NCBI GenBank assembly: GCA_038231155.1
Contig: JBBRLY010000014.1
Coordinates: forward strand, 22,792 to 86,791
DNA: 64,000 nucleotides
DNA from: Candidatus Saccharimonadales bacterium
Lineage (GTDB): Bacteria > Patescibacteriota > Saccharimonadia > Saccharimonadales > JANWIN01
Direction: 5' to 3'
Shown: positions 6,167 through 62,352 of the stretch, one piece after another
Numbering within the stretch: position 1 is the stretch's first letter
Layout: the number at the start of each line of letters is the position of its first letter
The notes under the pieces: model-generated
Databases searched by the model: none
What the model was told of the DNA's origin: nothing
Seen by the model: the letters and a program-made list of their open reading frames with translations, nothing else
Program-made: the position numbers and the translations under genes

Positions 6167-9100
6167 ATGCAGGACAGCGACCAGCTTACAACTGACACAA
6201 CTCGTGCAGAACCTGAGATTATTACATCTCAAGGTAGTTCTGTAGCGTCAATAACCAAAAAAGGTCTAATGTGGAAATGGGTAATAGTTGCTGCAGCCTT
6301 TACTCTGTTACTAACAGGATTAATAGCCTTTACATTACGTCGAAAACCAGTAAGCCCCTCACCAACGCAAGTTACTATTAATTCTCAAACAGTTAATACC
6401 AAGACTTTAGCTCCTGCAACAAGTACGTTTCAAATTGGAATTAATAAGGTAGTTATAAACGGCCAAGTACAAGCTAACCAGGGTTTAATACTTCAACCAA
6501 CAGATCAACCCACTACTCCAACCAAGGGCCAAATTTACTTAGACGCAAATACCAATACGTTACGTTACTATGACGGCACTAAGTTCGTAACAGTAGCTGA
6601 TCAGAACGCACTTACTAGTTTGGCAGCTAACCTTAGTAATATTCCAACAAATTTAGTAAATAGCCTTCAAGGCTCTACTGGTGCTCTGACTTTATCAGGA
6701 ACAAATGGAGTTACGATATCAGCCAATGGGGTTAACATTAGTATTAAATTACCTCAAGGAATATCTGTAACAAATAGTCCAACCTTTGCCGGTTTAACTT
6801 TGAGCACACCATTGGCTATTACTAGTGGTGGTACAGGTGTGAGCAGTTTTCCAGCTAATTCATCAATCACAACAGATGATACAGGTGTATTACAATCGGC
6901 TTCGTCAGGATCAGCCGGTATGTGTCTGTTGTCAAATACAGGTGCAGCACCAAGTTTTCAAGCCTGTCCAGGTAGCGCAGGTGTAAGTAGTATCAACGGA
7001 GGTACCGGTGCAGTCACATTAGCTAACGCTACTAATCCAATTGGTATAGACGGCACCATTACAATTGATAACGCTGCCGCTGATGGAGCCACTAAGGGTA
7101 TAGCGACTTTTAACAGCACTAACTTCTTCGGCTCAACAGGTATCATCAATACAATTCAGGACATTAATACTGCCGCTTCTCCAACCTTTGCTGGTTTGAC
7201 GTTGACATCACCTCTAACAGTTGGCAATGGTGGTACTGGTGCAAGCAATGCTGTTACTGCTCGGTTCAATCTCTCCGCTGCCGCTAGTGGTGCTAACAAT
7301 GACATCACTTCCACAACAGCTTTAAATACCATCACCCCCAGTGCTGCTCTAACTGTCGGTGCAACCGGCAAGCAATTTACATTACAGGGTAATAGCAATA
7401 GTGTCATAACAGCCACAAATGGGGCAAACACCACTACATTAGGATTTGTAACACCGACAGCAAATGTTACCTTTCAACTTCCCACGGCCTCAGCTGGAAC
7501 TTATTCAATTTGTACGTCAGCCAATAATTGTAGTGTTATTGGTGGCGGCGGCACCAATGGTACGATCCCGGTATTCAGCGGTGCCCAAACAATTGCTAAT
7601 TCCATCATCACCCAGAGTGGCAGCGTAATTACTATCAATGGTTCAGAAGTCTTACAGGGAAGTGGCTCCTTAACACTCGGTACAGGCTCTACTAATACCG
7701 GCTCAGTCGCTTTCAAGAACTCCACTAATAACAATACCGTCACTCTACAATCCGGCGTAACTAGTAGCGGTAGTTTAACCTTTACCTTACCAACAGCTGA
7801 CGGTACCAGTGCTCAATGTCTTACCACCAATGGTTCCGGAGCACTTAGCTTTAGTAATTGTTTATCTGGCTCTGGTGGCTCTGGCGTGATCTCTCTAGAT
7901 GGCCTGGCTGGCACCCTAACTGTAGCTAACTCCTCCGGTGCCGGTTCAACCATTACCATTAATAACGCTGCCGCCGATGCAACCACTAAGGGTATCGCTA
8001 CTTTTAATGCTACTAACTTTAATGCTAACAGCGGCATCATTAACACAGCTCAAGACATTAACACCGCAGCTTCTCCAACCTTTGCTGGTTTGACGTTGAC
8101 TGGTGACTTAACCCAAGGCGCTACAAATAAGATCTTTAGTAATACACTTCAACAAACCGGAGCCGGACATGAACTTGATGTAACCGCCAACAACGACCAA
8201 ATTAAATTTACAGCAAATGGTTTAACATTTTTCCTGCCAACTAATGGTGGCCTTGGCCAGACTATATGTACTAGTGGAATTTCCTGTCCATCTGGCGGGG
8301 GCACAGCTGTTTTACTAGGTCCTTCGGCAGCTCAAGTTAATAGCAACTCAAATTCCTCCATTTTTATCAATGACACAGGTGGTGGAAATCTTTTACAACT
8401 TCAAACTAGCGGAGTAGATAAATTTCTAGTAGATAACAGCGGTAATGTTTCGTTATCGAGTGGAGCTACGCTAAACCTCGATAACATCAGTACTTTAAGT
8501 AGCGGTGGTGACCAGCTTACCTTCAGCGCTAACAGCCGAACATTTATATTTCCAACTACCGGTCCAGCTAGTCAGACCATTTGTACGACAGGAATTACTT
8601 GTGTGGGCGCTGGGCAGGCAGTTCTTTTGGCACCAGGGTCTGCTCAGACTAACAGTAGCGCAACCGATAGTTCGATATTTATAAACAATACTAGTACAGC
8701 TAAGTTACTCCAATTGCAAAGTACTGGATCCGACGTCTTTACAATTGACCATAGTGGAAATACTACTATTACAGGAGGTACTCTCTCTCTTACGGCTTTA
8801 TCTAGCGGTGTAGCTACAGTTGGCGGTGGTGGCACTTTATCTTCTGTTAGTCAATTGCCAATTAACTTGGGTGGCACCAACGCTACCACTGCCGCTGGCG
8901 CCAGAAGCAACCTAAGTGCAGCTGTCTTAGGTGCTAACAACGACATCACTTCTACCACTGCTCTTAACACTATTACCCCCAGTGCCGCTCTAACAATCGG
9001 TGCAACCGGCCAGCAATTTACATTACAAGGGAATGCCAGTAGCGTTATTACAGCTACAAATGGAGTAAATACCACTACGTTAGGTTTTGTAACACCTACG

Positions 9101-12100
9101 GCGGCTAATAGTGTATTAATACCCAATGAGTCTGGAACTATTTGTTTACAAAATTCAGTAAACTGTGGCTTCGCACTTTCAGGTGGATCAGGGAGCTTCA
9201 TTCAAAACCAAAACAGTGTAGATCAAGTAGCAGATTTTCGCATATCTGGAACAGGTCGGGCAAATACAAGCATCTTGACACCTTTAGTGGATACTGCCAC
9301 ATCTGTTCCGTTAAATATCGGAACGACTAACACCACTGCTATAAATCTTAATCAAAATACGACTATTGCAGCTAATAAGTCTTTTACAGCTAACGGCAAT
9401 GCCTTATTTAAAGCGGCAACTAACTCTCCTACGTCCTTACAAATTCAAAACAATTCAAGCTCAGTGCTTTTCAATGCTGACACCACTAATATGCGTATCA
9501 GCGTTGGAAGTATTGGGACAGCTACCGGACAGCTTTACGTTAGCGGTACCCAACCAACTGATTTAACTAGCGGCGGTGTTGGTACTGGGACTAACCCTCG
9601 TTCTATCTCTATTCAAGGTCGCTATGCCTATATAGTTGTTGAAGGATCCAACAAACTCCAAGTCTTTGATATCTCTAATCCAGCTAGCCCGAGTGATGTC
9701 TCGAGCGGTGGAGTTACAACTGGAGCTCAGCCGATCTCTGTCTCGGTTCAAGGGCACTTTGCTTATGTTGTAGATTTTAGCTCTGGTGTTAATAAACTCC
9801 AAGTCTTTGATATCTCTAATCCTACAAACCCAACGGAGGTAACAACTGGCGGTGGTGCAACTACAGCCTCGCAGCCAATATCTGTTTATGTCCAAGGCCG
9901 CTACGCCTACGTAGCAAGCAGTGGCGGCCTAAAACTACAAATCTTTGATATTTCTAACCCAGCAAAACCAACTGATGTCTCAAGTGGTGGAGTCACAACG
10001 ATAGCTTCACCGCAGGCCATTTACGCCCAGGGTGGCTATGTCTACATAGTAGAACTAAGTAAGCTTCAGGTTTTTGATGTCTCTAACCCGGCTAGTCCGA
10101 CAGACGTTTCCAGTGGTGGTGTTGCTACTGGGTCTCAGTCTTCATCAATTTATGTACAAGGACGATACGCCTATGTAGCAGATTTTGGAGCAAACAAACT
10201 GCAAATATTTGATATTTCTAACCCCGCTACACCTACAGATGTATCTAGTGGAGGAGTTACTACTGCAGTTGGCCCCGAATCAGTTTATGTCCAAGGTCGC
10301 TATGCCTACATAGTTGTTGAAGGATCCAACAAACTCCAAGTCTTTGATATCTCAAACCCAGCCAGCCCAAGTGAAGTTACAACTGGTGGTGGAGTTGCGA
10401 CCGGAACTCAACCAATCTCCTTATGGGTCCAAGGCCGCTACGCTTATATAGCAGATTTTGGAGGCAATAGGCTTCAGGTGTTTGATCTAGGCGGTACTTA
10501 TGATCAACAACTTCAAGCCGGTGGTGCAGAGGTAGGAACTCTAGCAGTTAGTACTAACGCCAGCATTGCAGGTGACGGCAGTATCCAGGGAGGGTTAACG
10601 GTAGGATCGACCTTAGAAGTTAATGGAAACTTCGGTGTCGGCGGTCAAGCACTATTTAAAAACCAAACTGACTCAATAGCGGCCTTACAAATTCAGAATG
10701 CTGCTGGAACATCCAATCTTTTCGTAGCAGATACCACTCATAGTCGAATAGGGATAGAAACTTCTACACCGTCCGCTGATCTGACGTTTGGTGAATCAGC
10801 AAATAGAACTATTAATGTTCTAACGCGTACAACGAATGCTGTAGGCAATACTCTAACTATTCAAGCTGGTAATGCTGGGGCCGGTGGTAGTGCTTTTGTA
10901 GGTGGTGATCTTGTTTTACAAGCCGGAAACGCAGCCGGTACCGGAAATGCCGTTGGTGGGAATGTTGTTATTAAAACTGGAACTGCAGTCGGAACAGGTT
11001 CACAAGGAAACTTTGACCTACAAGATGGGACAAATCAACCATATTTCAGAGTTTATTACGGTGCTACTACGTCAGTCTCATGTGGGTTATTTCTAACAAA
11101 TATCTGTAACTATACTTCAGGGTTGGTTAATATTCCAAATTCCAATGTAAATGTAGGTCTTGTTACACAACCCACTAACTTTACAAGTGTAGGTTCTGGC
11201 TCAATTAATATAGCTACTGGTAACGCAATAGGCTCAACTTCGAACTCGGGCAATATTAACATTGGTACCGGTACTGCAACCGCGACTCCCGGAAGCGTAA
11301 TTATAAAGAATGGCATCAATGCGACTAATTCTTTCCAAATTCAAAATGCTGCTGGTGGACAACTGTTTAATGCCGATACATCTGGCAGTAATATTACTAT
11401 CGATGGGCTCAATACAGGCGAACCACAACCTTGGCTAACCAATGCCAACGCATTACCAGCTAATCGCCAACTACAAACTACAGTTATTGCTAATGGCTAT
11501 ATTTACGCCATTGGTGGCGCTAGCCTTACCAGCTCAGGCTATACTAACACTACTTACTACGCTAAATTAAACGCCAATGGCAGTGTAGGTACTTGGCAGT
11601 CTAGTCCAAATTTGTTACCTGGAAATCGAGGCTGGCCAACTTCAGTAGTTGCTAATGGTTATATTTATGTTATTGGTGGATTTGACGGAACTTCTTATTT
11701 CCAAACCACTTTCTATGCAAAATTGAATTCCGATGGTAGCATAGGTGCCTGGAAAACTAGCACTAAACTATTGCCTCAACCTGTAGCTTATAATGTCACG
11801 GGTGTTGCCAACGGTTATGTTTATGCTATTGGCGGTCAAACAACATCAATCCTTTCAACAGTTTATTATGCTAAATTAAACCCGAACGGTGACATCGGTG
11901 CCTGGCAAACTAATGCTAACTCCTTACCAGCTGCTCGAGGTGATACTTCAGGAGTTATTGCTAATGGTTATGTTTATGTCTTTGGTGGCGGTAATGCTGG
12001 TCAACATGCAGAGGTTTACTACGCTAAGTTAAACTCCGATGGTAGTACTGGTGCCTGGCAAACTAATGTAAACTCTTTACCAAATGCCAGAGCTTACCAT

Positions 12101-14635
12101 ACTGCAGTCGCAGCTAATGGGTATGCCTATGTAATTGGGGGTCAAGGTTCTCCTGGTTCACCATATAATAACACTATATATTACGCACATCTCAATGGAG
12201 ATGGTAGCACAGGTGTTTGGCAGACTAATGCCGCCGCTGATGCCTTACCAGCAAATCTGGCCTCACCCAGCTCTGCTATAGCAAATGGTTACATGTATGT
12301 TCTTGGAGGTATAAATAATTCAAACACTGTCCGGTCAACGGTTTACTACAGCTCAACTTCGCGTATTTTAATCGGTGGTTCACTTGATTTAGTTGGTCTT
12401 GGTGGACAGAATAATGCCGATGTAGGTGGCACGGGCGGTACTTTAACAGCTGGAAATGCAACAATTGTAGGTACTTTAGATGTCCGAGAAAATGCTAATT
12501 TCACTCAGAGTGTAGGTATTGGTGGAAACCTTACAGTTAATGGAGGAGCGACAATACAAGGTACACAGGGTTCAAATAACTTTTTACAAGTACAAAATGT
12601 TGGCGGAGTTAGTGCACTTAACATTAGTACCGTTAACCAAGTGGGAAATAATAGCTTTGAATCTGGTTCTATTGGAACTACACCTGACGGCTGGATAGTT
12701 AAAGGAGCAAGCACAGTTACTACGGATAACACTATTGCTAATTTTGGCTCCAACTCAATGAAGGTCGCAACGACTACTGCAGCTAGTGATGGTGCTAAGT
12801 TTAACTATCCTCTCTTACCAAGTACTCAATATAGCCTGAGCCTTTACGCTGCAATGTCTGCAGGCAGTATTTCCGACTTTGTGGTTGGTCACCAAGAAGC
12901 GGGTAGTGATATAAACTGCTTAACAGGGCAGACAATAAATACTACTTGGACTCGGTTCACTTGTACATTTACTACTGGTTCAACTATTTCCGGCACACCC
13001 AATATCTATGTGCAAAAATCTGGCGGCAGCGCAGAGACCTTTTTTATAGATGGCGTACAGCTCGAACTAGCCAGTAGTGCAACTGCTTATAGAACATCAG
13101 ATATAAATCTAAATGGTCTAACAACATTAAGTAATGCTGGTGGTGGCACTCAATTAACAATTGACACCAGTGGTAATGCGGCCAGCTTTACAGGTGCTTC
13201 TGGTAGTACTGGTGGTGCAATAAGCTTGACCGGAGGTACAGGAAGCGGTGGATTTATATCGGGTGGTGCAGTCTCGTTACAAGGAGGATCTTCGATTAAT
13301 GGAGGTACAACTAACGGCGGCGCGACAATTACGGCAGGAGCCGCAAGTAATTTGTTTGGGTCTGGTAGTGCTTCAATAGTTGGTGGTAATGGCATCTCCG
13401 GTAATTCAAACGGTGGGAATGTAGTTTTACAGGGCGGTGCTAAAAGTGGTACCGGTTCAAACGGCAATGTAATTATTCAAAATGCAAATAGTTCATTCCT
13501 GTTTAGCGCTGATCAGAGTACATCAAACATTATCTTAAATGGTGGTTTTGAATCAACTAATTCTATAGTTCCATCTTCATGGAGTGCTAAAACCGGATCC
13601 ACTTTGTCGCTGACTTCAAGTTTTCAGCAACAAGGTAACAATGCACTTCAAATTGCCACATCCACTTCGGCTGGTTCAGGAGCTACTTATAGTACCGGTC
13701 CAAGTTTCTTAGCTTCAACTACTCAATATACCCTTAGTTTTTGGGCACGTTTGAGTTCTGGTTCAATGGCGACATTTGAAGTAGGAAGAGCCGATGACGG
13801 ATCTACTGATACAAGTTGTGCAACTGGCCAGACACTAAATACCACATGGACATACTTTACCTGTAACTTTACAACCGGTACTGTATCAGGCACCCCTTAT
13901 GTTTACTTCAAACAAACTGGCGCCGGTACTAGCCGAAATATCATTTTGGATGCAGTTCAGCTAGAGGCAGGTGCCAGTGCTAGCGTCTTTAATCCAGGTG
14001 GTCAGCTGCAATTACTAGGTACGATAAATTCGCCTTTAACTATAAAACCCAAAACTGATAGTTCGCAGGTATTCCAGGTCCAGAACTCCGCTGGATCTAC
14101 TACTTTCCTAAGTGTTGATACTACAGGTAATGGCATCGTCAATATTCAGACTGCTACTAGCGGTACGATTAATATAGGTACTATTAATAACTTAAGCGTA
14201 GTTATCGGTAAAACCGCCGGTTCCGGAACATTAACTGTCAACGGTAGCTCAACCTTTAATGGCACAATCACAGTCAACGGACATATTGTTAGCGGAAACT
14301 TAAGCGGTGGAACAACTGGACTTTCACCTGGCAATATTACAAATTGTACAGATGGCGCTGCTGTTACTGTCTTTTTAGGTTCAAGTAATGATACTTCTGG
14401 ACAGGTTGAAGTCATAACTGGAACTACATGCAGTTCAGCAGGAGTATTTGCAACCGTTACTTTTGCGAACAACTTTGGCCCAAATCCAAAGGTGTTTCTT
14501 TCTCCAGCCGATACCAACTCCGCTAAACTCCAATTCTTTAGCAGTTCTGTTACTGCTGCGCATTTTTCAATCAGTAGTAACACTATACCAGGCCCAAATA
14601 CAACTTACGTTTTTAATTACCTTGTTGTGCAATAA
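6167..14635 (+). CDS. Giant (2822 aa) membrane-anchored mosaic surface protein: fibre-like repeats, LVIVD propeller, Kelch propeller, two CBM-like domains
   Basis: One uninterrupted 8469-nt ORF. N-terminal signal-anchor WKWVIVAAAFTLLLTGLIAFTL. T/S/G/N-rich composition. Tandem repeat families are listed as separate features. All other-frame and antisense ORFs in the interval are short, low-complexity shadows. Confidence 0.85.
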   Translation: MQDSDQLTTDTTRAEPEIITSQGSSVASITKKGLMWKWVIVAAAFTLLLTGLIAFTLRRKPVSPSPTQVTINSQTVNTKTLAPATSTFQIGINKVVINGQVQANQGLILQPTDQPTTPTKGQIYLDANTNTLRYYDGTKFVTVADQNALTSLAANLSNIPTNLVNSLQGSTGALTLSGTNGVTISANGVNISIKLPQGISVTNSPTFAGLTLSTPLAITSGGTGVSSFPANSSITTDDTGVLQSASSGSAGMCLLSNTGAAPSFQACPGSAGVSSINGGTGAVTLANATNPIGIDGTITIDNAAADGATKGIATFNSTNFFGSTGIINTIQDINTAASPTFAGLTLTSPLTVGNGGTGASNAVTARFNLSAAASGANNDITSTTALNTITPSAALTVGATGKQFTLQGNSNSVITATNGANTTTLGFVTPTANVTFQLPTASAGTYSICTSANNCSVIGGGGTNGTIPVFSGAQTIANSIITQSGSVITINGSEVLQGSGSLTLGTGSTNTGSVAFKNSTNNNTVTLQSGVTSSGSLTFTLPTADGTSAQCLTTNGSGALSFSNCLSGSGGSGVISLDGLAGTLTVANSSGAGSTITINNAAADATTKGIATFNATNFNANSGIINTAQDINTAASPTFAGLTLTGDLTQGATNKIFSNTLQQTGAGHELDVTANNDQIKFTANGLTFFLPTNGGLGQTICTSGISCPSGGGTAVLLGPSAAQVNSNSNSSIFINDTGGGNLLQLQTSGVDKFLVDNSGNVSLSSGATLNLDNISTLSSGGDQLTFSANSRTFIFPTTGPASQTICTTGITCVGAGQAVLLAPGSAQTNSSATDSSIFINNTSTAKLLQLQSTGSDVFTIDHSGNTTITGGTLSLTALSSGVATVGGGGTLSSVSQLPINLGGTNATTAAGARSNLSAAVLGANNDITSTTALNTITPSAALTIGATGQQFTLQGNASSVITATNGVNTTTLGFVTPTAANSVLIPNESGTICLQNSVNCGFALSGGSGSFIQNQNSVDQVADFRISGTGRANTSILTPLVDTATSVPLNIGTTNTTAINLNQNTTIAANKSFTANGNALFKAATNSPTSLQIQNNSSSVLFNADTTNMRISVGSIGTATGQLYVSGTQPTDLTSGGVGTGTNPRSISIQGRYAYIVVEGSNKLQVFDISNPASPSDVSSGGVTTGAQPISVSVQGHFAYVVDFSSGVNKLQVFDISNPTNPTEVTTGGGATTASQPISVYVQGRYAYVASSGGLKLQIFDISNPAKPTDVSSGGVTTIASPQAIYAQGGYVYIVELSKLQVFDVSNPASPTDVSSGGVATGSQSSSIYVQGRYAYVADFGANKLQIFDISNPATPTDVSSGGVTTAVGPESVYVQGRYAYIVVEGSNKLQVFDISNPASPSEVTTGGGVATGTQPISLWVQGRYAYIADFGGNRLQVFDLGGTYDQQLQAGGAEVGTLAVSTNASIAGDGSIQGGLTVGSTLEVNGNFGVGGQALFKNQTDSIAALQIQNAAGTSNLFVADTTHSRIGIETSTPSADLTFGESANRTINVLTRTTNAVGNTLTIQAGNAGAGGSAFVGGDLVLQAGNAAGTGNAVGGNVVIKTGTAVGTGSQGNFDLQDGTNQPYFRVYYGATTSVSCGLFLTNICNYTSGLVNIPNSNVNVGLVTQPTNFTSVGSGSINIATGNAIGSTSNSGNINIGTGTATATPGSVIIKNGINATNSFQIQNAAGGQLFNADTSGSNITIDGLNTGEPQPWLTNANALPANRQLQTTVIANGYIYAIGGASLTSSGYTNTTYYAKLNANGSVGTWQSSPNLLPGNRGWPTSVVANGYIYVIGGFDGTSYFQTTFYAKLNSDGSIGAWKTSTKLLPQPVAYNVTGVANGYVYAIGGQTTSILSTVYYAKLNPNGDIGAWQTNANSLPAARGDTSGVIANGYVYVFGGGNAGQHAEVYYAKLNSDGSTGAWQTNVNSLPNARAYHTAVAANGYAYVIGGQGSPGSPYNNTIYYAHLNGDGSTGVWQTNAAADALPANLASPSSAIANGYMYVLGGINNSNTVRSTVYYSSTSRILIGGSLDLVGLGGQNNADVGGTGGTLTAGNATIVGTLDVRENANFTQSVGIGGNLTVNGGATIQGTQGSNNFLQVQNVGGVSALNISTVNQVGNNSFESGSIGTTPDGWIVKGASTVTTDNTIANFGSNSMKVATTTAASDGAKFNYPLLPSTQYSLSLYAAMSAGSISDFVVGHQEAGSDINCLTGQTINTTWTRFTCTFTTGSTISGTPNIYVQKSGGSAETFFIDGVQLELASSATAYRTSDINLNGLTTLSNAGGGTQLTIDTSGNAASFTGASGSTGGAISLTGGTGSGGFISGGAVSLQGGSSINGGTTNGGATITAGAASNLFGSGSASIVGGNGISGNSNGGNVVLQGGAKSGTGSNGNVIIQNANSSFLFSADQSTSNIILNGGFESTNSIVPSSWSAKTGSTLSLTSSFQQQGNNALQIATSTSAGSGATYSTGPSFLASTTQYTLSFWARLSSGSMATFEVGRADDGSTDTSCATGQTLNTTWTYFTCNFTTGTVSGTPYVYFKQTGAGTSRNIILDAVQLEAGASASVFNPGGQLQLLGTINSPLTIKPKTDSSQVFQVQNSAGSTTFLSVDTTGNGIVNIQTATSGTINIGTINNLSVVIGKTAGSGTLTVNGSSTFNGTITVNGHIVSGNLSGGTTGLSPGNITNCTDGAAVTVFLGSSNDTSGQVEVITGTTCSSAGVFATVTFANNFGPNPKVFLSPADTNSAKLQFFSSSVTAAHFSISSNTIPGPNTTYVFNYLVVQ
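6269..6337 (+). other. Single N-terminal transmembrane anchor of the giant protein
   Basis: aa 35-57, MWKWVIVAAAFTLLLTGLIAFTL, preceded by KK and followed by RRK. There is no other hydrophobic helix in the remaining 2760 aa. Confidence 0.7.
7058..7207 (+). repeat. Fibre-like module, copy 1 (ITIDNAAADGATKGIATFN...INTIQDINTAASPTFAGLTLT)
   Basis: 50-aa in-frame module, 41/50 identical to copy 2. The 32-nt stretch gcttctccaacctttgctggtttgacgttgac (7175-7206) is identical to 8069-8100. Confidence 0.8.
7268..7462 (+). repeat. 65-aa module NLSAA..GANNDITSTTALNTITPSAALT.GATG.QFTLQGN..SVITATNG.NTTTLGFVTPTA, copy 1
   Basis: 58/65 aa identical to the copy at 8909-9103. Confidence 0.8.
7952..8101 (+). 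repeat. Fibre-like module, copy 2 (ITINNAAADATTKGIATFN...INTAQDINTAASPTFAGLTLT)
   Basis: See copy 1. The ATKGIATF motif recalls the TxKGIxxLAT motif of phage tail-fibre proteins (recalled similarity only). Confidence 0.8.
8909..9103 (+). repeat. 65-aa module, copy 2
   Basis: See 7268-7462. Between the copies lie two further diverged modules (about 8200-8455 and 8521-8770), each with a QTICT.GI.C Cys pair. Confidence 0.8.
9599..10495 (+). repeat. Seven LVIVD-type repeats (predicted 7-bladed beta-propeller) within the giant protein
   Basis: Seven units of about 43 aa with the pattern QP.S.YVQGRYAY(I/V)...(N/L)KLQ(V/I)FD(I/V)SNP..P(T/S)(D/E)V(S/T)(S/T)GG. This matches the LVIVD repeat signature (AYVA...GL.IVDVSNP..P). 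Confidence 0.75.
11453..12355 (+). repeat. Six Kelch-type repeats (predicted 6-bladed beta-propeller) within the giant protein
   Basis: Six units of about 50 aa: LP..R.......ANGY(I/V)Y(A/V)IGG........(V/T).YYAKLN..G..G.WQ. Confidence 0.75.
12647..13066 (+). other. CBM_4_9-like carbohydrate-binding-type domain 1
   Basis: Starts NNSFESGSIGTTPDGW and ends ETFFIDGVQLE. It is paralogous to the 13538-13966 domain (shared blocks T.QY.LS..A, C.TGQT.NTTWT.FTC.FTTG, SGTP). Confidence 0.6.
13538..13966 (+). other. CBM_4_9-like carbohydrate-binding-type domain 2
   Basis: Starts NGGFESTNSIVPSSW and ends RNIILDAVQLE. The N.(G/S)FE....(G/S)W start is typical of this jelly-roll family. Confidence 0.6.
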
Positions 14636-17220: not shown

Positions 17221-17557
17221 AGCTAATCCACTATAACAGAGGAAGATGTAATATGTAATAAAAAATATGGAATATTGGTTTGAAATATAGTCTGGTAGTT
17301 AAGAGTTTATTTTCATGAAAACAGCTCTGTAATTTTCATAATTTTGTAATATCTTAACTTTAAAATCTAACATCCAAGTTGTGGGTTTACTTACATCTAT
17401 CATAAACGCTATACTATCCTCTACGTGGCCATCAAACAATCTTCATATGCATATGATGTCTTTCTAAAAAACTTTGACATTTCCATTCAACCAAAATTAC
17501 TCCCAACAGATGGAAACGAGCAAAGAATTATTAGTATAAGCAAATCTCAAATCAATC

Positions 17558-29904: not shown

Positions 29905-31443
29905 ATGCAGTGGCTCAACAAAATTGTTGATGATGTTGTAAAACGTCATCCCAAGGGCGATATATTAATTGAATCAGGTGGTTCACCAAGCGGTACTTAC
30001 CACCTTGGTCATATGCGTGAACTGATCACAGCCGATGCTATTTCATTGGAACTAAATAACCGTGCTCGAAAAGCGAAGCACATATATTTTGTTGATGATC
30101 TTGACGTATTTAGGAAAGTTCCAGTTAATGTCCCGTCGGAGTTTGATAAATATTTAGGCAAGTCTCTCTGCGATGTGCCATCCCCAAATGGTGACCAAAG
30201 TCAGTCTTATGCAGACTATTTTCTAAAAGGACTGATTGAGAGCTGCCAAGCACTTAATATAGAAGTTGAGTTTATTCGTTCAAATAATAAATATCAAAAT
30301 GGATTTTTTGTTCCTGCTATAGAAAAATCTCTAGAACATTTAAAGAAGGTTCGTAAAGCTTTAGAAACAATATCTGGACGACAACTAGGAGGTGAGTGGT
30401 CACCAATCCAAGTTAATGAAGATGGTTATTTGAAAAAACGGCCATTCGTTAATTTAAATAAAACAGATAAAACAATTAGCTATTTAAATAAGGACGGCCA
30501 AGAACTAACAACTTCTTATGCAAATGGTGAAGTTAAATTAGATTGGCGATTGGACTGGCCAGCTAGATGGTGGTTATTGAAAGTAGATGTAGAACCCTAT
30601 GGTCGTGAGCATGCTAGCGCCGGCGGATCATATGATACTGGTGTTCAGCTGATGAAGGATGTCTTTGAAGCGTCACCACCATTACCCGTTCCTTATGATT
30701 CGATAAATATGGTTGGCGATACCAAGAAAATGAGTGCCAGTAAAGGGACTGCTATTAGTGCGCTTGAAGGCATAGAAATTATGCCACCGGAAGTCATACG
30801 TTACTTTATATTAAGATCTCCATTAGACAGACGACTATATTTTGATCCAGTTAACGGTGTCGTGCAGCTGATGGATGAATTTGCGGCACTAGCTGCCAAA
30901 CCCAACAAGAGCTCATCTGAGCAGCAGCTACTTTACGTATCTACAGGCGGTCAGAATAATCAACAAACAGTCAGTAGAGTTCCGTTTTCACTTCTGGTTA
31001 CAAGCTATCAAGCTTCACTTAAAGACGAAGATAAAACTCTGGATATAATAAAGCGTTCGGAATATGCCAAGTTAGCCGATGAAGACTCAGCAATTATTCG
31101 AAATGAACTAAAATTTATTGATGCTTGGCTAGATAAGCATGCTCCTGAAGACGTTAAATTTTCTCTTGCAAATAAAATAGATCTAAATTCTTTTAATGAT
31201 AAACAAAAAAGTTTTATGGCGTTATTAGCTGATAAACTCGATAAAACACCTCCAAATATTGATGGTGAAGGCTTACACCAAGTTATTTACGAATTAAAAA
31301 ATAGTAGCGAATTGGAACCTAAGGAAATGTTCAGTACTTTGTACCAAGCCTTGATTAATAAAAGTTCCGGTCCACGTGCCGGCTGGTTTTTGAGCATTTT
31401 ACCTCGTGACTGGCTAATTAAGCGACTAAGGTTTGAGGAGTAA
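29905..31443 (+). CDS. lysK: Class I lysyl-tRNA synthetase
   Basis: Rossmann-type signature SPSGTYHLGHMRE (HIGH variant) and KMSASKG (KMSKS variant). No OB-fold or class II motifs. Confidence 0.85.
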   Translation: MQWLNKIVDDVVKRHPKGDILIESGGSPSGTYHLGHMRELITADAISLELNNRARKAKHIYFVDDLDVFRKVPVNVPSEFDKYLGKSLCDVPSPNGDQSQSYADYFLKGLIESCQALNIEVEFIRSNNKYQNGFFVPAIEKSLEHLKKVRKALETISGRQLGGEWSPIQVNEDGYLKKRPFVNLNKTDKTISYLNKDGQELTTSYANGEVKLDWRLDWPARWWLLKVDVEPYGREHASAGGSYDTGVQLMKDVFEASPPLPVPYDSINMVGDTKKMSASKGTAISALEGIEIMPPEVIRYFILRSPLDRRLYFDPVNGVVQLMDEFAALAAKPNKSSSEQQLLYVSTGGQNNQQTVSRVPFSLLVTSYQASLKDEDKTLDIIKRSEYAKLADEDSAIIRNELKFIDAWLDKHAPEDVKFSLANKIDLNSFNDKQKSFMALLADKLDKTPPNIDGEGLHQVIYELKNSSELEPKEMFSTLYQALINKSSGPRAGWFLSILPRDWLIKRLRFEE

Positions 31444-31992
31444 TTAGTTGTATTGAGAGCCAGCAGTAAGTTTGTATTGGGTGTTTAACAAATATTTAGT
31501 GAATCCGGCCCCGTGAGGCACAGCTATTTTTTCTGCGAATTCTAATTCAGAATTATCTGGGCTAAAATTAGCCAAATCATCGACTACAGTATCAATAATT
31601 TTATTTAAATTTGGATCATCCTCTAAAGAACTTGCAGCAAGAGCTTCACTTTGATCGTCTTGAAAGATAGAAAGGCTAATTTGACCACCAATAGGCCCAA
31701 GTATTGGAACTTCCAAGAAAGTGCTGCTGAGAGCTAGATAGCTAATGCACGATCCTAATCTAAAAGCTTTTTCAGCTGATATTAGATCATCAATAGTCGT
31801 GCTTACTTGTATCTCGGCAATGCTCATACGGTACCGTAAAATATCATGAAGAATAGGATTTTGGTTTTTTATATCCATCCAGGTTGAAAACACCATATTA
31901 TCTATCCCAAGGTCGTGTATTCTTTCATAACAATATTCTTTAGCCATGTCACTGACTAAAAACTCAACTGTTGGTGGTACCAAAGCACTCAT
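31444..31992 (-). CDS. Hypothetical acidic 182-aa protein
   Basis: The ORF is convergent with lysK with zero intergenic nucleotides (the stop codons abut at 31443/31444). No recognisable family. Confidence 0.45.
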   Translation of the reverse strand: MSALVPPTVEFLVSDMAKEYCYERIHDLGIDNMVFSTWMDIKNQNPILHDILRYRMSIAEIQVSTTIDDLISAEKAFRLGSCISYLALSSTFLEVPILGPIGGQISLSIFQDDQSEALAASSLEDDPNLNKIIDTVVDDLANFSPDNSELEFAEKIAVPHGAGFTKYLLNTQYKLTAGSQYN

Positions 31993-32033: not shown

Positions 32034-32516
32034 ATGCAAAAAGCGATATTTGCAGCCGGCTGTTTCTGGGGAGTTCAATATTATTTTGACCAAGTTCCCG
32101 GAGTAGTTAAAACTATCGTTGGATACACCGGTGGGCTTACTAAAAATCCAAGTTATGAAGCGGTCTGCACTCATACTACCGGGCATGCTGAAGTGGTCCA
32201 AATTGAATTCGATCCCCAAAAAGTTAGCTATAAAACTTTACTTAAACAATTTTTCCGTATGCATAATCCGACGCAACTAAATAGACAGGGGCCTGATGTT
32301 GGCGATCAATACCGCTCAGCTATTTTTTATTTTAATAATGAGCAGAAAAAAGCAGCTGAGAAATCAAAACAAGAACAGCAAACAAACTATAAAGATCCAG
32401 TAGTCACGCAAATTGTGCCAGCGACTGAATTTTACGAAGCCGAAGAATATCATCAAAAATTTACTGAAAAAACCGGCCGAGGCATGTGTCATGTCGATTA
32501 CGCCCCAGTTTCATAG
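32034..32516 (+). CDS. msrA: Peptide methionine-S-sulfoxide reductase
   Basis: Active-site GCFWG with typical blocks HAEVVQIEFDP and GPDVGDQYRSAIFY. Confidence 0.9.
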   Translation: MQKAIFAAGCFWGVQYYFDQVPGVVKTIVGYTGGLTKNPSYEAVCTHTTGHAEVVQIEFDPQKVSYKTLLKQFFRMHNPTQLNRQGPDVGDQYRSAIFYFNNEQKKAAEKSKQEQQTNYKDPVVTQIVPATEFYEAEEYHQKFTEKTGRGMCHVDYAPVS

Positions 32517-32545
32517 AATTATTAAATAATGGTATAGTTCTAGCC

Positions 32546-33406
32546 ATGGCTAACAAGAAGAAATCATCTAGTGCAAAAACCAAAACATCAAACAGCAACG
32601 CTGTTAAAGTAAGTGTTGGGAAAACATCTAAAGTAGTGTCGATGGCCGGTTTAAGAAGATGGAACATGTGGCTATCTGTAGTCTTTGTGCTACAGGCAGC
32701 AGCCATTTTAATCCTTAGTAAATCTATAACCCTACCGGTAGTTTCACATTATCTTGCAACTGACAGCCTGGCATCACAAGCTGCTGGACACAATGTCATG
32801 GCCTTAGCGGTTAGGCATTTATTCGATATCTACGTGGCTTCGTTAGTAGCGGCATTATTGTTGGTTTCAGCTGCTGCTCATGGAGCTATGGCTTCAATGC
32901 AGCGACAAAGCTATGAAAAGGGATTAAGTACTAGTAAAAATAAGCTACGCTGGATTGATTTAGGAATTGGTACCAGCTTATTAATGATTGCCTTAGGACT
33001 TATTAACGGTATTTATGACTTCGCCAGTTTACTGATGATAGTTGTTTTGGTATTACTACTAAACGGCTTAGCTTATAAGACGGAGCTTTATAATCGAGAT
33101 CACAATAAACCTATTAGCTGGCGTAATTTTTGGGGAATTTTATTGGCTGGTGCAGCAGTATGGGCAACTGTTGGCTCATATCTTAAAAGCGCCATTGTAT
33201 ATGGTAACGGATTACCGCACTATATTTATTGGTTAGATATAAGTGCCTTTATTTTAATGTTGTTAATAATTTCAAATATCTGGCTAACAGCTAAAGCTCG
33301 GGGCAAATGGGCTGACTACTTATACGCTGAACGTAGCTACATGATTTTAAACTTAGTACTTTACACCGCTATAGCTTGGCAAATTTTCTTTGGCCTATTG
33401 CATTAG
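32546..33406 (+). CDS. Heliorhodopsin-like 7-TM protein lacking the Schiff-base lysine
   Basis: Seven hydrophobic helices with a Lys-rich (inside) N-terminus. Blocks align to heliorhodopsin 48C12 as I recall it: LPVVSHYL / LPMTGTYL, KLRWIDLGIGTS / IFRWVEYSLSSS, GKWADYLYAERSYMILNLVLYTAIAWQIFFG / GKWSNYLRGERAYIVLSLVAKSALAWQIFSG. I prefer ATG 32546 because TGgTATAGT (32530-32538) lies 7 nt upstream. The longest ORF starts at 32486, inside msrA. Confidence 0.7.
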   Translation: MANKKKSSSAKTKTSNSNAVKVSVGKTSKVVSMAGLRRWNMWLSVVFVLQAAAILILSKSITLPVVSHYLATDSLASQAAGHNVMALAVRHLFDIYVASLVAALLLVSAAAHGAMASMQRQSYEKGLSTSKNKLRWIDLGIGTSLLMIALGLINGIYDFASLLMIVVLVLLLNGLAYKTELYNRDHNKPISWRNFWGILLAGAAVWATVGSYLKSAIVYGNGLPHYIYWLDISAFILMLLIISNIWLTAKARGKWADYLYAERSYMILNLVLYTAIAWQIFFGLLH

Positions 33407-33412
33407 TAGCAA

Positions 33413-34030
33413 ATGAGCAACATCATTTTTGATTTTGACGGCACCTTGGCTGATAGTTTACCGGTGGTAACTGATTTATTTAATCAGTGGTTTAGGTCCA
33501 ATAACCCTTTAACTCTTGAAGAAGTAGCTAAACTGCGCAATATGAATGCTAGGCAAGCATCTAGAGAATTAAATATTTCTATTTGGCAAGTTCCAGGACT
33601 ATTGGTAAAAGGTCGTAAAGCTGTTGGACGACGCTTACATGAGATTCCGATGCATGGCGGGATTGAAAGTGTTATAAAAAATCTTCATAAAGATGGTCAT
33701 AGGTTATTTGTTGTAAGCTCTAATAGCCCAGAGAATATTCGTAAATTTTTAAAAGCACACAATGTTTATCAATACTTATCTGGTTTACAGGGTAATGCTG
33801 GACTATTTGGAAAAACAGCAGTATTGAAAAGTGTTATGCGAAAATATCATTTAGCTTCATCAGATACTTATTATATTGCAGATGAGGTACGTGATGTTGA
33901 TGCTGCAAAAAAGGCAAACGTTAAGTCGGTGGCCGTTAGTTGGGGCTACAACGGATATAAAATTCTAAAAGCCCAGAATCCGAGCTTTTTGCTGTCTGAT
34001 CCTTCTCAGATAATAGCTTTATTCAAATAA
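33413..34030 (+). CDS. HAD-superfamily phosphatase (phosphoglycolate-phosphatase-like)
   Basis: DxDxT motif FDFDGTLADS, motif II VVSSNS, and motif III/IV K...ADEVRDVDAAKKA. Confidence 0.8.
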   Translation: MSNIIFDFDGTLADSLPVVTDLFNQWFRSNNPLTLEEVAKLRNMNARQASRELNISIWQVPGLLVKGRKAVGRRLHEIPMHGGIESVIKNLHKDGHRLFVVSSNSPENIRKFLKAHNVYQYLSGLQGNAGLFGKTAVLKSVMRKYHLASSDTYYIADEVRDVDAAKKANVKSVAVSWGYNGYKILKAQNPSFLLSDPSQIIALFK

Positions 34031-34092: not shown

Positions 34093-34899
34093 ATGAGGGC
34101 AAATAACTATTGGACAGAACGCAACAAACCTTATCAACCAGGTCAATCTAAACCATTTAAGGTAAGCCGCAGCAAAATCGAGCTATTTATTCAATGTCCT
34201 CGATGTTTTTGGTTAGATGTGCGACTAAAGATCAAACGGCCAAACGGACCACCATTTCAAATAAATAAAGCCATCGACGAATTACTTAAAAAAGAATTTG
34301 ATAGTTATAGACTAAAAGGTCAGCCACATCCATGGATGACTGATAATGAGATTAACGCTGTACCGATGCAACATAACGATTTGGATAAATGGCGGCATAA
34401 TTTTAGCGGAGTAGCAACTTTGCACACACCATCCAATCTACACATTTTTGGAGCAATTGACGACATCTGGGTTAATCAAGCAGGCGAAGTAATAGTAGTA
34501 GACTATAAGGCCACAGCTAAGCAAAGTGATGTTTCGCTAGACGCCGATTGGCAGATGAGTTATAAGCGTCAAATAGAAATTTATCAATGGTTACTTCGCC
34601 AGAATGGTTTTAAAGTTAATGATACAGGTTATTTTGTATATACCAACGGCAGGCTTGATTTAGATGGTTTTTATGACCGTGTAGAATTTCGAACCAAGAT
34701 TATCCCTTACAAAGGCAGTGATAGCTGGATAGAACCAACGATATTAAAGATGAAAAAAGTTATGGAAGGTGATATGCCAAAAGTAGGCAAAGCTGCGATG
34801 GGCGGTGACTGCGACTACTGTAGTTACGCTAAGTCCCGTACTGAACTAACACTGAAGTCGCTACAAGCCGACAAAAAACCGAAGCAGGCTAAGGTATAA
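34093..34899 (+). CDS. PD-(D/E)XK nuclease family protein (Cas4/RecB-like fold) with 2+2 Cys
   Basis: Motifs GAIDDIWV, VVVDYKAT (D/ExK) and QIEIYQWLL (QxxxY). Cys pairs CPRC near the N-terminus and CDYC near the C-terminus. Confidence 0.65.
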   Translation: MRANNYWTERNKPYQPGQSKPFKVSRSKIELFIQCPRCFWLDVRLKIKRPNGPPFQINKAIDELLKKEFDSYRLKGQPHPWMTDNEINAVPMQHNDLDKWRHNFSGVATLHTPSNLHIFGAIDDIWVNQAGEVIVVDYKATAKQSDVSLDADWQMSYKRQIEIYQWLLRQNGFKVNDTGYFVYTNGRLDLDGFYDRVEFRTKIIPYKGSDSWIEPTILKMKKVMEGDMPKVGKAAMGGDCDYCSYAKSRTELTLKSLQADKKPKQAKV

Positions 34900-43414: not shown

Positions 43415-43563
43415 ACAATTTCTTAAATTAATAATAAATTTTATTGTTCGATCCGCAATGAAAACCGATTGTTCATTAAAGTTTGAATAAAAATTTAATA
43501 TTTTAATGCTCAGTAATTAGTATATTTAACGGGGTATTGTAAAGGGAGTGAGGGTGTGTTATA

Positions 43564-44751
43564 GTGTCAGCACAAATGCTAAAACAAAAATTAAAAGCTC
43601 AACTATCTGTTAGTTTTTCACGCGCTACTTTTATTACTATAGCTGCAGTTTTAGTATTGGCAGTTGTAGCAACAGTGAAAGTTAGAGCTGATCAGTTTGA
43701 TCAGCAAATTTCTCAACTTCAGCAACAAAATGATCAAACTAAGAGCACAATTAATCAGTTACAATCTCAAGCTAGTAGTTATCAAGATGCTATTAATAAA
43801 CTACAGACTCAAATCAATTCACTACAAGCAGATATAAATAATAACTTGGCCAGACAAGCTCAACTTAAACAACAAATAACTGATGCCGAGATAGAATTAG
43901 ATAAGCAAAAGGTAGTTTTGGGCGATAGTATTAGAGAAATGTATACCCAGGGGCAAATTAGTAATTTAGAATTGCTGGCTTCCTCACAAAACTTAAGTGA
44001 TTTTGTTGATCAGCAGGTTTATCAAGGAGCCGTTCAAGACCAAATTAAGCAAACTCTAGATAATATTACTGCACTTAAACTTAAGTTGCAGGATGAAAAA
44101 AATCAAGTGGAACAGTTATTAAAAGATCAACAAACTCAGCAGCTGCAGTTAGGTGGTGCCCAGCAACAGCAAAGTCAACTTCTGGCTTATAACCAAGGTC
44201 AGCAATCTGCCTATAACCAGCAGATTAGTGACAACCAAGCTAAAATAGTTGCGTTGCGAGTTCAACAGTTTGCTGCTAATAACCGATTATTGGGTAGTGG
44301 TAATGTATCAGTTATTTCTTCTGGAAGCTGTGGTGGTTCTTACCCTGGTGATGCAGCCGGGCCCTACGGACACTGGGGTTGTAACTATAGTTTAGATCAA
44401 GGTGTAGACAACTGGGGTATGTATAACCGTGAGTGCGTAAGTTATACAGCCTGGAAAGTATTTAAAGCCTATGGATATATGCCATATTGGGGCGGATCGG
44501 GTAACGCTAATCAGTGGCCTTCTGATGCCGATGCCTATCACATCCCAAGAGGCAACACTCCCAAAGTTGGCTCAGTAGCTATTGGTACTAATCCAAATTA
44601 TTTTGGATCTTTAGGTCATTCTATGTGGGTGGAAGCAATTTCTGGGAATAATATATTAGTCAGTCAGTTTAATTTTGGTTCACCGGGTCAATATAGCCAG
44701 ATGTGGATAAGCAGCAGCTTAATGAATACATTCATTTATTTTGGCGGTTAA
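43564..44751 (+). CDS. Secreted or anchored coiled-coil + CHAP-domain peptidoglycan hydrolase (PcsB-like architecture)
   Basis: GTG start after AAGGGAGTGAGGG. N-terminal TM/signal, about 200 aa of Q-rich heptad-like coiled coil, and a C-terminal CHAP domain (Cys in NRECVSYTAWKV, His in GHSMWVEAI). Confidence 0.8.
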   Translation: MSAQMLKQKLKAQLSVSFSRATFITIAAVLVLAVVATVKVRADQFDQQISQLQQQNDQTKSTINQLQSQASSYQDAINKLQTQINSLQADINNNLARQAQLKQQITDAEIELDKQKVVLGDSIREMYTQGQISNLELLASSQNLSDFVDQQVYQGAVQDQIKQTLDNITALKLKLQDEKNQVEQLLKDQQTQQLQLGGAQQQQSQLLAYNQGQQSAYNQQISDNQAKIVALRVQQFAANNRLLGSGNVSVISSGSCGGSYPGDAAGPYGHWGCNYSLDQGVDNWGMYNRECVSYTAWKVFKAYGYMPYWGGSGNANQWPSDADAYHIPRGNTPKVGSVAIGTNPNYFGSLGHSMWVEAISGNNILVSQFNFGSPGQYSQMWISSSLMNTFIYFGG

Positions 44752-62323: not shown

Positions 62324-62352
62324 TTGACAAAACGCATATGTTTTGCTATAGT
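62324..62352 (+). promoter_or_regulatory. Consensus sigma70-like promoter 10 nt upstream of a start codon
   Basis: TTGACA (62324-62329), 17 nt, TATAGT (62347-62352), with the ATG at 62363. No SD. Confidence 0.55.

Follow-up and report, generated by a model that had tools for sequence, protein, structure and literature searches.

Within a window of 64,000 nucleotides (39% GC) from contig JBBRLY010000014.1 of a Candidatus Saccharimonadales bacterium, the gene at 32546-33406 on the forward strand encodes a seven-helix membrane protein that a first-pass annotation, made from the sequence alone, took to be a heliorhodopsin (HeR) with tyrosine in place of the lysine that forms the Schiff base with retinal. 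Ever since the discovery of heliorhodopsins in 2018 their physiological role has been unclear, and the locus raises the question of what such a protein is kept for once its chromophore has nowhere to attach. The analysis presented here indicates that the product is very probably a retinal-free, selectively maintained HeR homologue. The best explanation overall, to which we give a probability of about 0.5, is that it is an apo-heliorhodopsin retained for a light-independent role as a partner-binding scaffold.

The family assignment is secure. The product matches the Pfam Heliorhodopsin profile (PF18761) over positions 1-242 of 242 (E = 2.7e-47; 161.6 bits against a cutoff of 26.7), scores 150.1 bits against the NCBIfam HeR equivalog model (NF038020; cutoff 100) and, in phmmer searches of PDB sequences, retrieves TaHeR (6is6, E = 2e-27) and 48C12 (6su3, E = 3e-19). 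The AlphaFold2 model, for which 36 homologues were used as input (pLDDT 89.5, pTM 0.82), displays the seven helices expected from the first-pass annotation together with a long AB β-hairpin. When this model was compared with the PDB using Foldseek the ten best matches were all heliorhodopsins, 6is6 superposing with a TM-score of 0.92 and a root-mean-square deviation of 1.7 Å, while type-1 rhodopsins trailed at TM-scores of ∼0.6. The blocks that the first-pass annotation had aligned to 48C12 (LPVVSHYL/LPMTGTYL, RWIDLG/RWVEYS and GKWADYLYAERSYMILNLVLYTAIAWQIF/GKWSNYLRGERAYIVLSLVAKSALAWQIF) were all reproduced by HMMER. By both family and fold the open reading frame (ORF) thus encodes a full-length heliorhodopsin homologue.

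Likeness to the canonical HeRs 48C12 (6su3 and 6uh3) and TaHeR (6is6) extends from family membership, the seven-transmembrane (TM) fold, the long AB β-hairpin and the basic N-terminal tail to the equivalents of N16, Q26, H80, Y92, N101, R104, W105, E149, Y226, E230, W246 and Q247 and to the dimer-interface Tyr and Asp. The window protein differs from them in the AB loop, which is 6-8 residues longer, an extension common to its Saccharimonadia relatives, and at the retinal site. Residues were mapped by aligning the protein to three solved HeRs with HMMER and by a MAFFT alignment that takes in 189 sequences; across TM7 these agree and have no gaps. In these alignments Tyr273 occupies the position of the Schiff-base lysine, K241 in 48C12 and K238 in TaHeR; its codon, TAC, lies at 33362-33364 and not at 33342-33344 as first reported, which was the sole error in the first-pass annotation. 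Asp138 (codon GAT, 32957-32959) stands at the counter-ion Glu (E107 in 48C12, E108 in TaHeR), so that the substitution proposed earlier at this site is upheld along with the loss of the lysine. Asn269 takes the place of the Ser of the SxxxK motif (S237 in 48C12), Leu272 aligns with Ala240, Phe47 replaces His23 and Gly142 replaces Ser111 (48C12 numbering). Hence the counter-ion set E107, S76, S111, S237, H23 and H80 reads D138, S108, G142, N269, F47 and H112, with S76 and H80 alone retained, and the pocket aromatics Y108, F206 and F72 have become Leu, Met and Leu. The TM7 motif is NLVLY where canonical proteins have SLVAK, and so lacks the required SxxxK.

The 17 lysines of the window protein are confined to the N-terminal tail, the loops and the ends of helices; TM7 is Lys-free, as had been noted, and the remainder of the membrane core has no lysine either. 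The possibility that a different helix supplies a compensating lysine was weighed and dismissed; orthologues do not share K178, which is at the cytoplasmic end of TM4. The protein is therefore predicted, from its sequence, to be incapable of binding retinal covalently. An error at the Tyr codon is unlikely because conversion of TAC to AAA or AAG takes at least two base changes, an identical protein is present on three assembled contigs (copies of the same genome, and possibly not independent), and the closest orthologues also lack the lysine.

Comparison with these orthologues shows that the loss is not peculiar to the window. The nearest (50-60% identity) have Arg (P0002 and P0003) or Gln (P0005) at the Schiff-base position, and P0011 (47% identity) has Gln, whereas the next relatives, P0004 and P0006-P0010, carry Lys. 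With regard to the two outcomes envisaged in the first-pass annotation, conservation of Tyr and reappearance of Lys, the former is not observed and the latter is. Tyrosine at this position thus carries no special meaning.

The extent of lysine loss was evaluated by running phmmer exhaustively against 1.84 billion cluster representatives (50% identity); this returned 1015 family members at E ≤ 1e-3. Among the best 150 of these 1015 clusters 96 are Lys-less, 52 have Lys and 2 are truncated. The residues that replace lysine in the 96 Lys-less representatives are Q, A, V, L, T, S, Y, I, R, N, M, H, E, G, C and P. Since the TM7 segments stay in register between the invariant Glu (E230) and AWQ, the assignments are independent of alignment details. 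When sequences were sampled at 90% identity, a profile of 60 Lys-less sequences used against a word-indexed database identified 107 new proteins, only 11 of which were Lys-less, the rest being mostly canonical HeRs, indicating that Lys-less forms are very diverse but not necessarily abundant. A scan of GTDB genomes yielded 80 loci, all encoding canonical HHREESK HeRs (the best with 43% identity to the window protein); as the scan used a Lys-containing pattern, [AV][KR][TS]..AWQ, it serves as a baseline only and is unfit for counting Lys-less genomes.

In a neighbour-joining tree the two states are interleaved, and Fitch parsimony assigns 39 changes and 53 purely Lys-less clades; the tree is rough at such divergence and the number of losses is not exact, but the interleaving points to many independent losses of the lysine. 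The window protein belongs to a small Lys-less clade (Y, R, R and Q) whose sister, P0004, has Lys. Within the wider clade the site erodes stepwise, here written in the order H23, H80, R104, E107, E230, S237 and K241 of 48C12, from HHREESK through FHREESK, FHRDESK, FHRNESK and FHRDES(R/Q) to the FHRDENY of the window protein. Two K-bearing orthologues, P0004 (locus L005, 8001-8801) and P0280, have Asn at the counter-ion position (FHRNESK) and thus no carboxylate counter-ion; such proteins may be spectrally unusual or already non-functional as pigments, and possibly represent an intermediate towards lysine loss.

The genomic setting of these proteins is strongly conserved. In the window the order of genes is RRF, an RseP-like protease, an Rce1-like protein, a ProRS-type aminoacyl-tRNA synthetase, GreA, lysyl-tRNA synthetase (LysRS), MsrA, HeR, a HAD phosphatase, a PD-(D/E)XK nuclease, SerRS, HPF and SecA, with MsrA and HAD being the optional members. 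The same order is evident in the identical contig L001. The HeR gene occupies the same slot at Lys-less loci with Arg (L002/L090 and L091/L092), Gln (L004, L097 and the contig of P0005), Ala (L088) or Val (L089), and at the K-bearing loci L005, L006, L007 and about 20 more. All six non-redundant Lys-less loci for which DNA was fetched, in addition to the window, are in the slot, while fetched K-bearing genes are found both inside (25) and outside it (88). The GTDB records that contain slot-type loci are named Candidatus Saccharibacteria or Saccharimonadales. These data show that the gene is a vertically inherited occupant of a conserved Saccharimonadia housekeeping slot, and that lysine has been lost many times within this one slot.

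The synteny bears on the proposal that the Lys-less protein acts as a silent partner, pairing as a heterodimer with a K-bearing HeR from another locus of the genome and modulating it. Such a role was proposed for Rh-noK, a Lys-less opsin found beside proteorhodopsin (PMC10308929), and it would be consistent with conservation of the dimer-interface residues Y212 and D158 (Y179 and D127 in 48C12) and with the canonical HHREESK-type HeRs that many Saccharibacteria metagenome-assembled genomes (MAGs) carry outside the slot. There is, however, no second HeR in the 64-kb window, nor within ∼8 kb of any fetched Lys-less locus. Furthermore, since K-bearing orthologues fill the same slot in other genomes, the Lys-less protein is an orthologue that lost its lysine rather than a dedicated paralogue, and a silent-partner function is thus considered improbable.

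Several lines of evidence demonstrate that the gene has remained under purifying selection after the loss of lysine. The proportions of non-synonymous (pN) and synonymous (pS) differences were compared directly in place of a proper dN/dS estimate, as synonymous sites are saturated in every informative pair. Between L002 and L091, both of which have Arg, the HeR gene displays a pN of 0.162 and a pS of 0.749, the pN of the adjacent HAD gene being 0.241; between L088 (Ala) and L089 (Val) the values for the HeR gene are 0.213 and 0.785. No Lys-less locus has a truncated or disrupted ORF. The stepwise erosion around the Schiff base described above is what a decaying relic might be expected to display. 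Against this view pN is far below pS and the ORFs are intact throughout, which rules out a decaying pseudogene; the HeR gene is more tightly constrained than its HAD neighbour; the predicted promoter (see below) is conserved; and many positions are >85-95% conserved over 96 clusters that are <50% identical to each other. TAC is at least two bases from the Lys codons and the protein is identical on three contigs. The view that the gene is a relic, or its Tyr codon a sequencing or assembly artefact, retains hardly any probability.

For each 48C12 position, column entropy in the 96 Lys-less representatives was compared with that in the 52 K-bearing ones retrieved by the same phmmer search. The largest gains in the Lys-less set are at K241, E107, H80, S237, S111, S76 and Y108, residues that in the 48C12 structure surround and hydrogen-bond the protonated Schiff base (PMC7049168). 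Retinal-pocket positions show a mean entropy change of 0.39 bits compared with 0.16 bits for random position sets (permutation p 0.004), while mean column entropy is otherwise similar, at 2.26 bits in the Lys-less and 2.09 bits in the K-bearing proteins. Loss of the lysine is coupled to loss of the acidic counter-ion (odds ratio 24, p 2e-14, without phylogenetic correction). Elsewhere the Lys-less set is highly conserved, with G124 at 100%, W105 at 99%, R104 at 96%, E230 at 94%, and Y92, W246, E149, N16 and Q26 at ∼85-92%. The cytoplasmic polar core, the dimer-interface Tyr and Asp (Y212 and D158 of the window protein), the FG-loop motif GKWADYLY.ER and D73, A88 and L92 of the AB hairpin are likewise retained.

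These patterns discriminate between the two interpretations offered in the first-pass annotation, which proposed that a scaffold unable to form a Schiff base would be either a retinal-free derivative with a new, non-photochemical role or a non-covalent chromophore binder. The premise is supported, and the comparative data favour the retinal-free option because the lysine position varies freely, the counter-ion is lost with the lysine, and relaxation is centred on the Schiff base, with constraint maintained over the remainder of the protein. A photoreceptor that holds retinal or another pigment non-covalently, with Tyr273 contributing to a new binding mode, would be compatible with the intact fold and with conservation of the pocket-lining W136 and W206 (W105 and W173 in 48C12). 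The variability of the lysine position among orthologues and relatives, where 17 different residues occur, the replacement of the aromatic walls by Leu, Met and Leu, and the loss of constraint at pocket positions, however, argue against a specific chromophore pocket being kept, rendering this alternative very improbable. Whether the role is new, as the first-pass annotation suggested, or is an ancestral light-independent function that the HeR scaffold has retained, the data fit equally well.

A pocket without retinal could also provide a route through the membrane. It is possible, although unlikely, that the protein is a light-independent transporter or lipid scramblase in which lipids or small amphiphiles travel via the emptied pocket and a lateral fenestration flanked by helices E and F, a capacity that would serve lipid-auxotrophic episymbionts. 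Opsin scaffolds are generally reported to scramble lipids without retinal. Many Lys-less relatives have small residues (A, G, S, T or V) at the lysine and counter-ion positions, HeR crystals show lipid tails between helices E and F beside the ionone ring (PMC7049168), and viral HeRs reportedly conduct protons. In the window protein, by contrast, the large Tyr273, Leu272 and Asn269 would fill the pocket rather than open it, and no residue lining the putative path becomes conserved.

The preferred explanation, a partner-binding scaffold, is favoured because the features retained in Lys-less proteins are the cytoplasmic core, the FG loop, the basic tail and the dimer contacts, and because there is a precedent in AbHeR, which uses charged residues in its intracellular loops to bind the glutamine synthetase of its operon and to regulate it (PMC9529153). 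The window protein would function without light as a dimeric membrane scaffold, whose conserved cytoplasmic face probably binds and tunes a soluble partner. This face would comprise the R135-E262 core, Y123, N132, E180, Y258, the GKWADYLY.ER loop and the basic N-terminal tail. In K-bearing ancestors the interaction may have been light-gated, the Lys-less forms having discarded the light switch and kept the scaffold. The window locus resembles that of AbHeR, which serves as the model for the proposed mechanism, in that the HeR is encoded beside a soluble enzyme; it differs in that the neighbours are HAD and MsrA rather than glutamine synthetase, and in that AbHeR has retinal and its effect needs light (PMC9529153).

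The best candidate partners would be the enzymes encoded by the neighbouring genes, although the specific proposal of a mechanism that involves the HAD phosphatase and MsrA is made tentatively. As the first-pass annotation had stated, msrA, encoding peptide-methionine (S)-S-oxide reductase (32034-32516, forward strand; TIGR00401, 210 bits; PF01625), is located directly upstream of the HeR gene, and downstream are genes for a HAD phosphatase and then a PD-(D/E)XK nuclease. The phosphatase, a HAD-IA (Gph-like) enzyme (33413-34030, forward strand; HAD_2, PF13419, E = 2.5e-31; short of every NCBIfam equivalog cutoff), begins 6 nt beyond the HeR stop codon. As the gap is so short, and a scan found no forward-strand terminator between the two genes, HeR and HAD are probably co-transcribed. 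A HAD gene is immediately downstream in 13 of 25 K-bearing slot loci, in none of 78 loci elsewhere, and in three of the six fetched Lys-less loci as well as the window. Of the K-bearing slot loci, 13 of 23 have msrA as their immediate upstream neighbour on the same strand, compared with 2 of 63 elsewhere; among Lys-less loci it is present in one of four fetched, and also in the window and the P0005 contig. A link to MsrA would fit the proposal that HeRs protect against photo-oxidative stress, which a survey of candidate phyla radiation (CPR) genomes cites from Bulzu 2021 (PMC9166423). The PD-(D/E)XK (Cas4-like) nuclease (34093-34899, forward strand; PF12705) is downstream in all syntenic loci, and thus belongs to the syntenic backbone rather than to a HeR unit.

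Several observations weigh against the scaffold interpretation. HAD adjacency is limited to about half of the slot loci, and MsrA to 13 of 23 of the K-bearing ones. The Lys-less loci L004 and L097 have neither gene adjacent, indicating that neither HAD nor MsrA is an obligatory partner. A search for residues that are newly conserved specifically in Lys-less proteins found none, and so no specific new active site is indicated. The conserved cytoplasmic residues could merely stabilize the fold. The absence of retinal is deduced from the sequences, the partners are candidates, and the placement by synteny covers those of the 96 Lys-less representatives for which DNA was fetched.

MsrA is also encoded directly upstream of canonical K-bearing HeRs outside the Saccharimonadia slot, at L054 (Thermoleophilia, an actinobacterial MAG) and L069, an arrangement that hints at a wider functional link between MsrA and HeR.

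Loss of the retinal lysine has precedents among type-1 opsins, namely haloarchaeal opsins (Becker 2016), Rh-noK and the freshwater flotillin-associated rhodopsins (FArhodopsins) (PMC10308929). The window protein shares with these a rhodopsin fold kept after lysine loss, and light-independent or regulatory roles have been proposed for them; like a maintained Lys-less opsin it combines the fold and the absence of lysine with pN values of 0.16-0.21 against pS values of 0.75-0.79. It differs in belonging to the heliorhodopsins, a family with inverted topology, and to a different phylum, the Saccharibacteria, and in that orthologues at one syntenic locus have become Lys-less many times over. In contrast to Rh-noK, which is in tandem with a functional paralogue, it is the single HeR-family ORF in the window. 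No description of Lys-less heliorhodopsins was found in the full-text literature, a search whose coverage mostly leaves out subscription journals. The main text of a structural survey of 479 HeRs never mentions 'lysine', and the CPR survey, in the part available, checked every candidate HeR for SxxxK and reports just the commonest K-containing motifs (PMC9166423).

The existence of a large natural set of proteins that have lost the retinal site, yet are under purifying selection at a conserved locus, indicates that the HeR scaffold is useful without light. A far-reaching extension of this view, which we advance as speculative and rather doubtful, is that Lys-less HeRs constitute a large undescribed branch (at least ∼1/10 of the 50%-identity clusters) at a core Saccharibacteria locus, revealing an important light-independent activity of the scaffold, perhaps scrambling or uptake of lipids or amphiphiles by way of the emptied pocket and fenestration in a lipid-auxotrophic episymbiont, or perhaps constitutive control of MsrA or HAD, that is possibly the core function of HeRs. 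In practical terms, Lys-less HeRs are ready-made loss-of-photochemistry variants for experiments. Surveys that count HeRs by hidden Markov model alone will credit the genomes of Saccharibacteria and other CPR bacteria with too much light sensing, while those that filter on SxxxK will miss the Lys-less branch entirely.

The boundaries of the Lys-less HeR gene (32546-33406, forward strand; 286 amino acids, seven TM helices) are well supported. It starts at the ATG at 32546 and ends with the TAG at 33404-33406. A longer reading from a GTG at 32486, which overlaps msrA, lacks support, as MA(N/K/T)KK is found at the position of the ATG in all orthologues; this shared start, together with the conserved promoter just 5' of it, identifies the ATG as the true initiation codon. 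Residues 1-32 (32546-32641) form a disordered tail (pLDDT ∼55) that is rich in Lys, Ser and Thr and predicted to be cytoplasmic. The N-in (inverted) topology is based on the positive-inside rule, as the 32-residue tail contains eight lysines and no acidic residues, and on homology. A basic tail of ∼31-35 residues with ∼9 K/R is typical of K-bearing and Lys-less relatives alike. The extracellular AB region, residues 62-96 (32729-32833), consists of a β-hairpin and a short helix, as assigned by DSSP on the AlphaFold2 model, and contains the clade-conserved D73, L75, A88, L92 and D94, the first of which is kept in 91 of the 96 Lys-less relatives. The cytoplasmic motif GKWADYLYAER, residues 253-263 at the FG loop and the start of TM7 (33302-33334), in which W255, Y258 and E262 are conserved, is highly conserved in proteins with and without the lysine and is a candidate partner-binding surface. 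Two in-frame stops, TAG TAG, close the HeR gene, and the HAD start codon follows 3 nt on (33404-33412) without a recognisable Shine-Dalgarno sequence.

A consensus scan identified the promoter that the first-pass annotation had placed 7 nt before the ATG. This sigma-70-type element (32510-32538, forward strand) consists of TTCATA, a 17-nt spacer and TATAGT, with an extended -10 box, TGgTATAGT, at 32530-32538. TGnTATAGT is also present 6-7 nt before the ATG in L002, L004, L005, L006, L007 and L089, where the flanking sequences are unrelated, and the HeR gene is thus predicted to have its own conserved promoter. As the -10 box ends only 6-7 nt before the ATG, the sequence suggests that the HeR mRNA would be leaderless or nearly so. 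The motif is found within ∼10 nt of other start codons in the window, at 14582-14590 and 17230-17238 (reverse strand) and at 43557-43565 and 62344-62352 (forward strand). Leaderless or very short-leader mRNAs may therefore be common in this genome; the total of six TGnTATAGT motifs in the window is not above chance, 3.5 being expected.

Other features of the slot vary between genomes. LysRS in the window (29905-31443) is a class I, archaeal-type enzyme (TIGR00467, 374 bits), and the corresponding Pfam family, PF01921, is also represented in L002, L005 and the P0005 contig. In the same slot L007 (3005-4525) and L089 (6174-7733) encode a class II LysRS (TIGR00499, ∼425 bits), and PF00152 is also found in L004, L006 and L088. 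This class switch suggests that, within Saccharimonadia, an essential enzyme was exchanged in place for a non-orthologous one. Between lysS and msrA the window contains an orphan ORF of 182 amino acids (31444-31992, reverse strand) with no Pfam or NCBIfam match. The junction 3' of lysS is occupied by a MazE/Fic toxin-antitoxin pair in L002 and by a 122-amino-acid ORF in the P0005 contig, while in L005 lysS is followed directly by msrA, and it thus seems to be a variable insertion spot. Finally, a giant ORF of 2822 amino acids (6167-14635, forward strand) contains LVIVD, Kelch and CBM_4_9 carbohydrate-binding repeats, and probably encodes a large surface protein such as an episymbiont would be expected to have.

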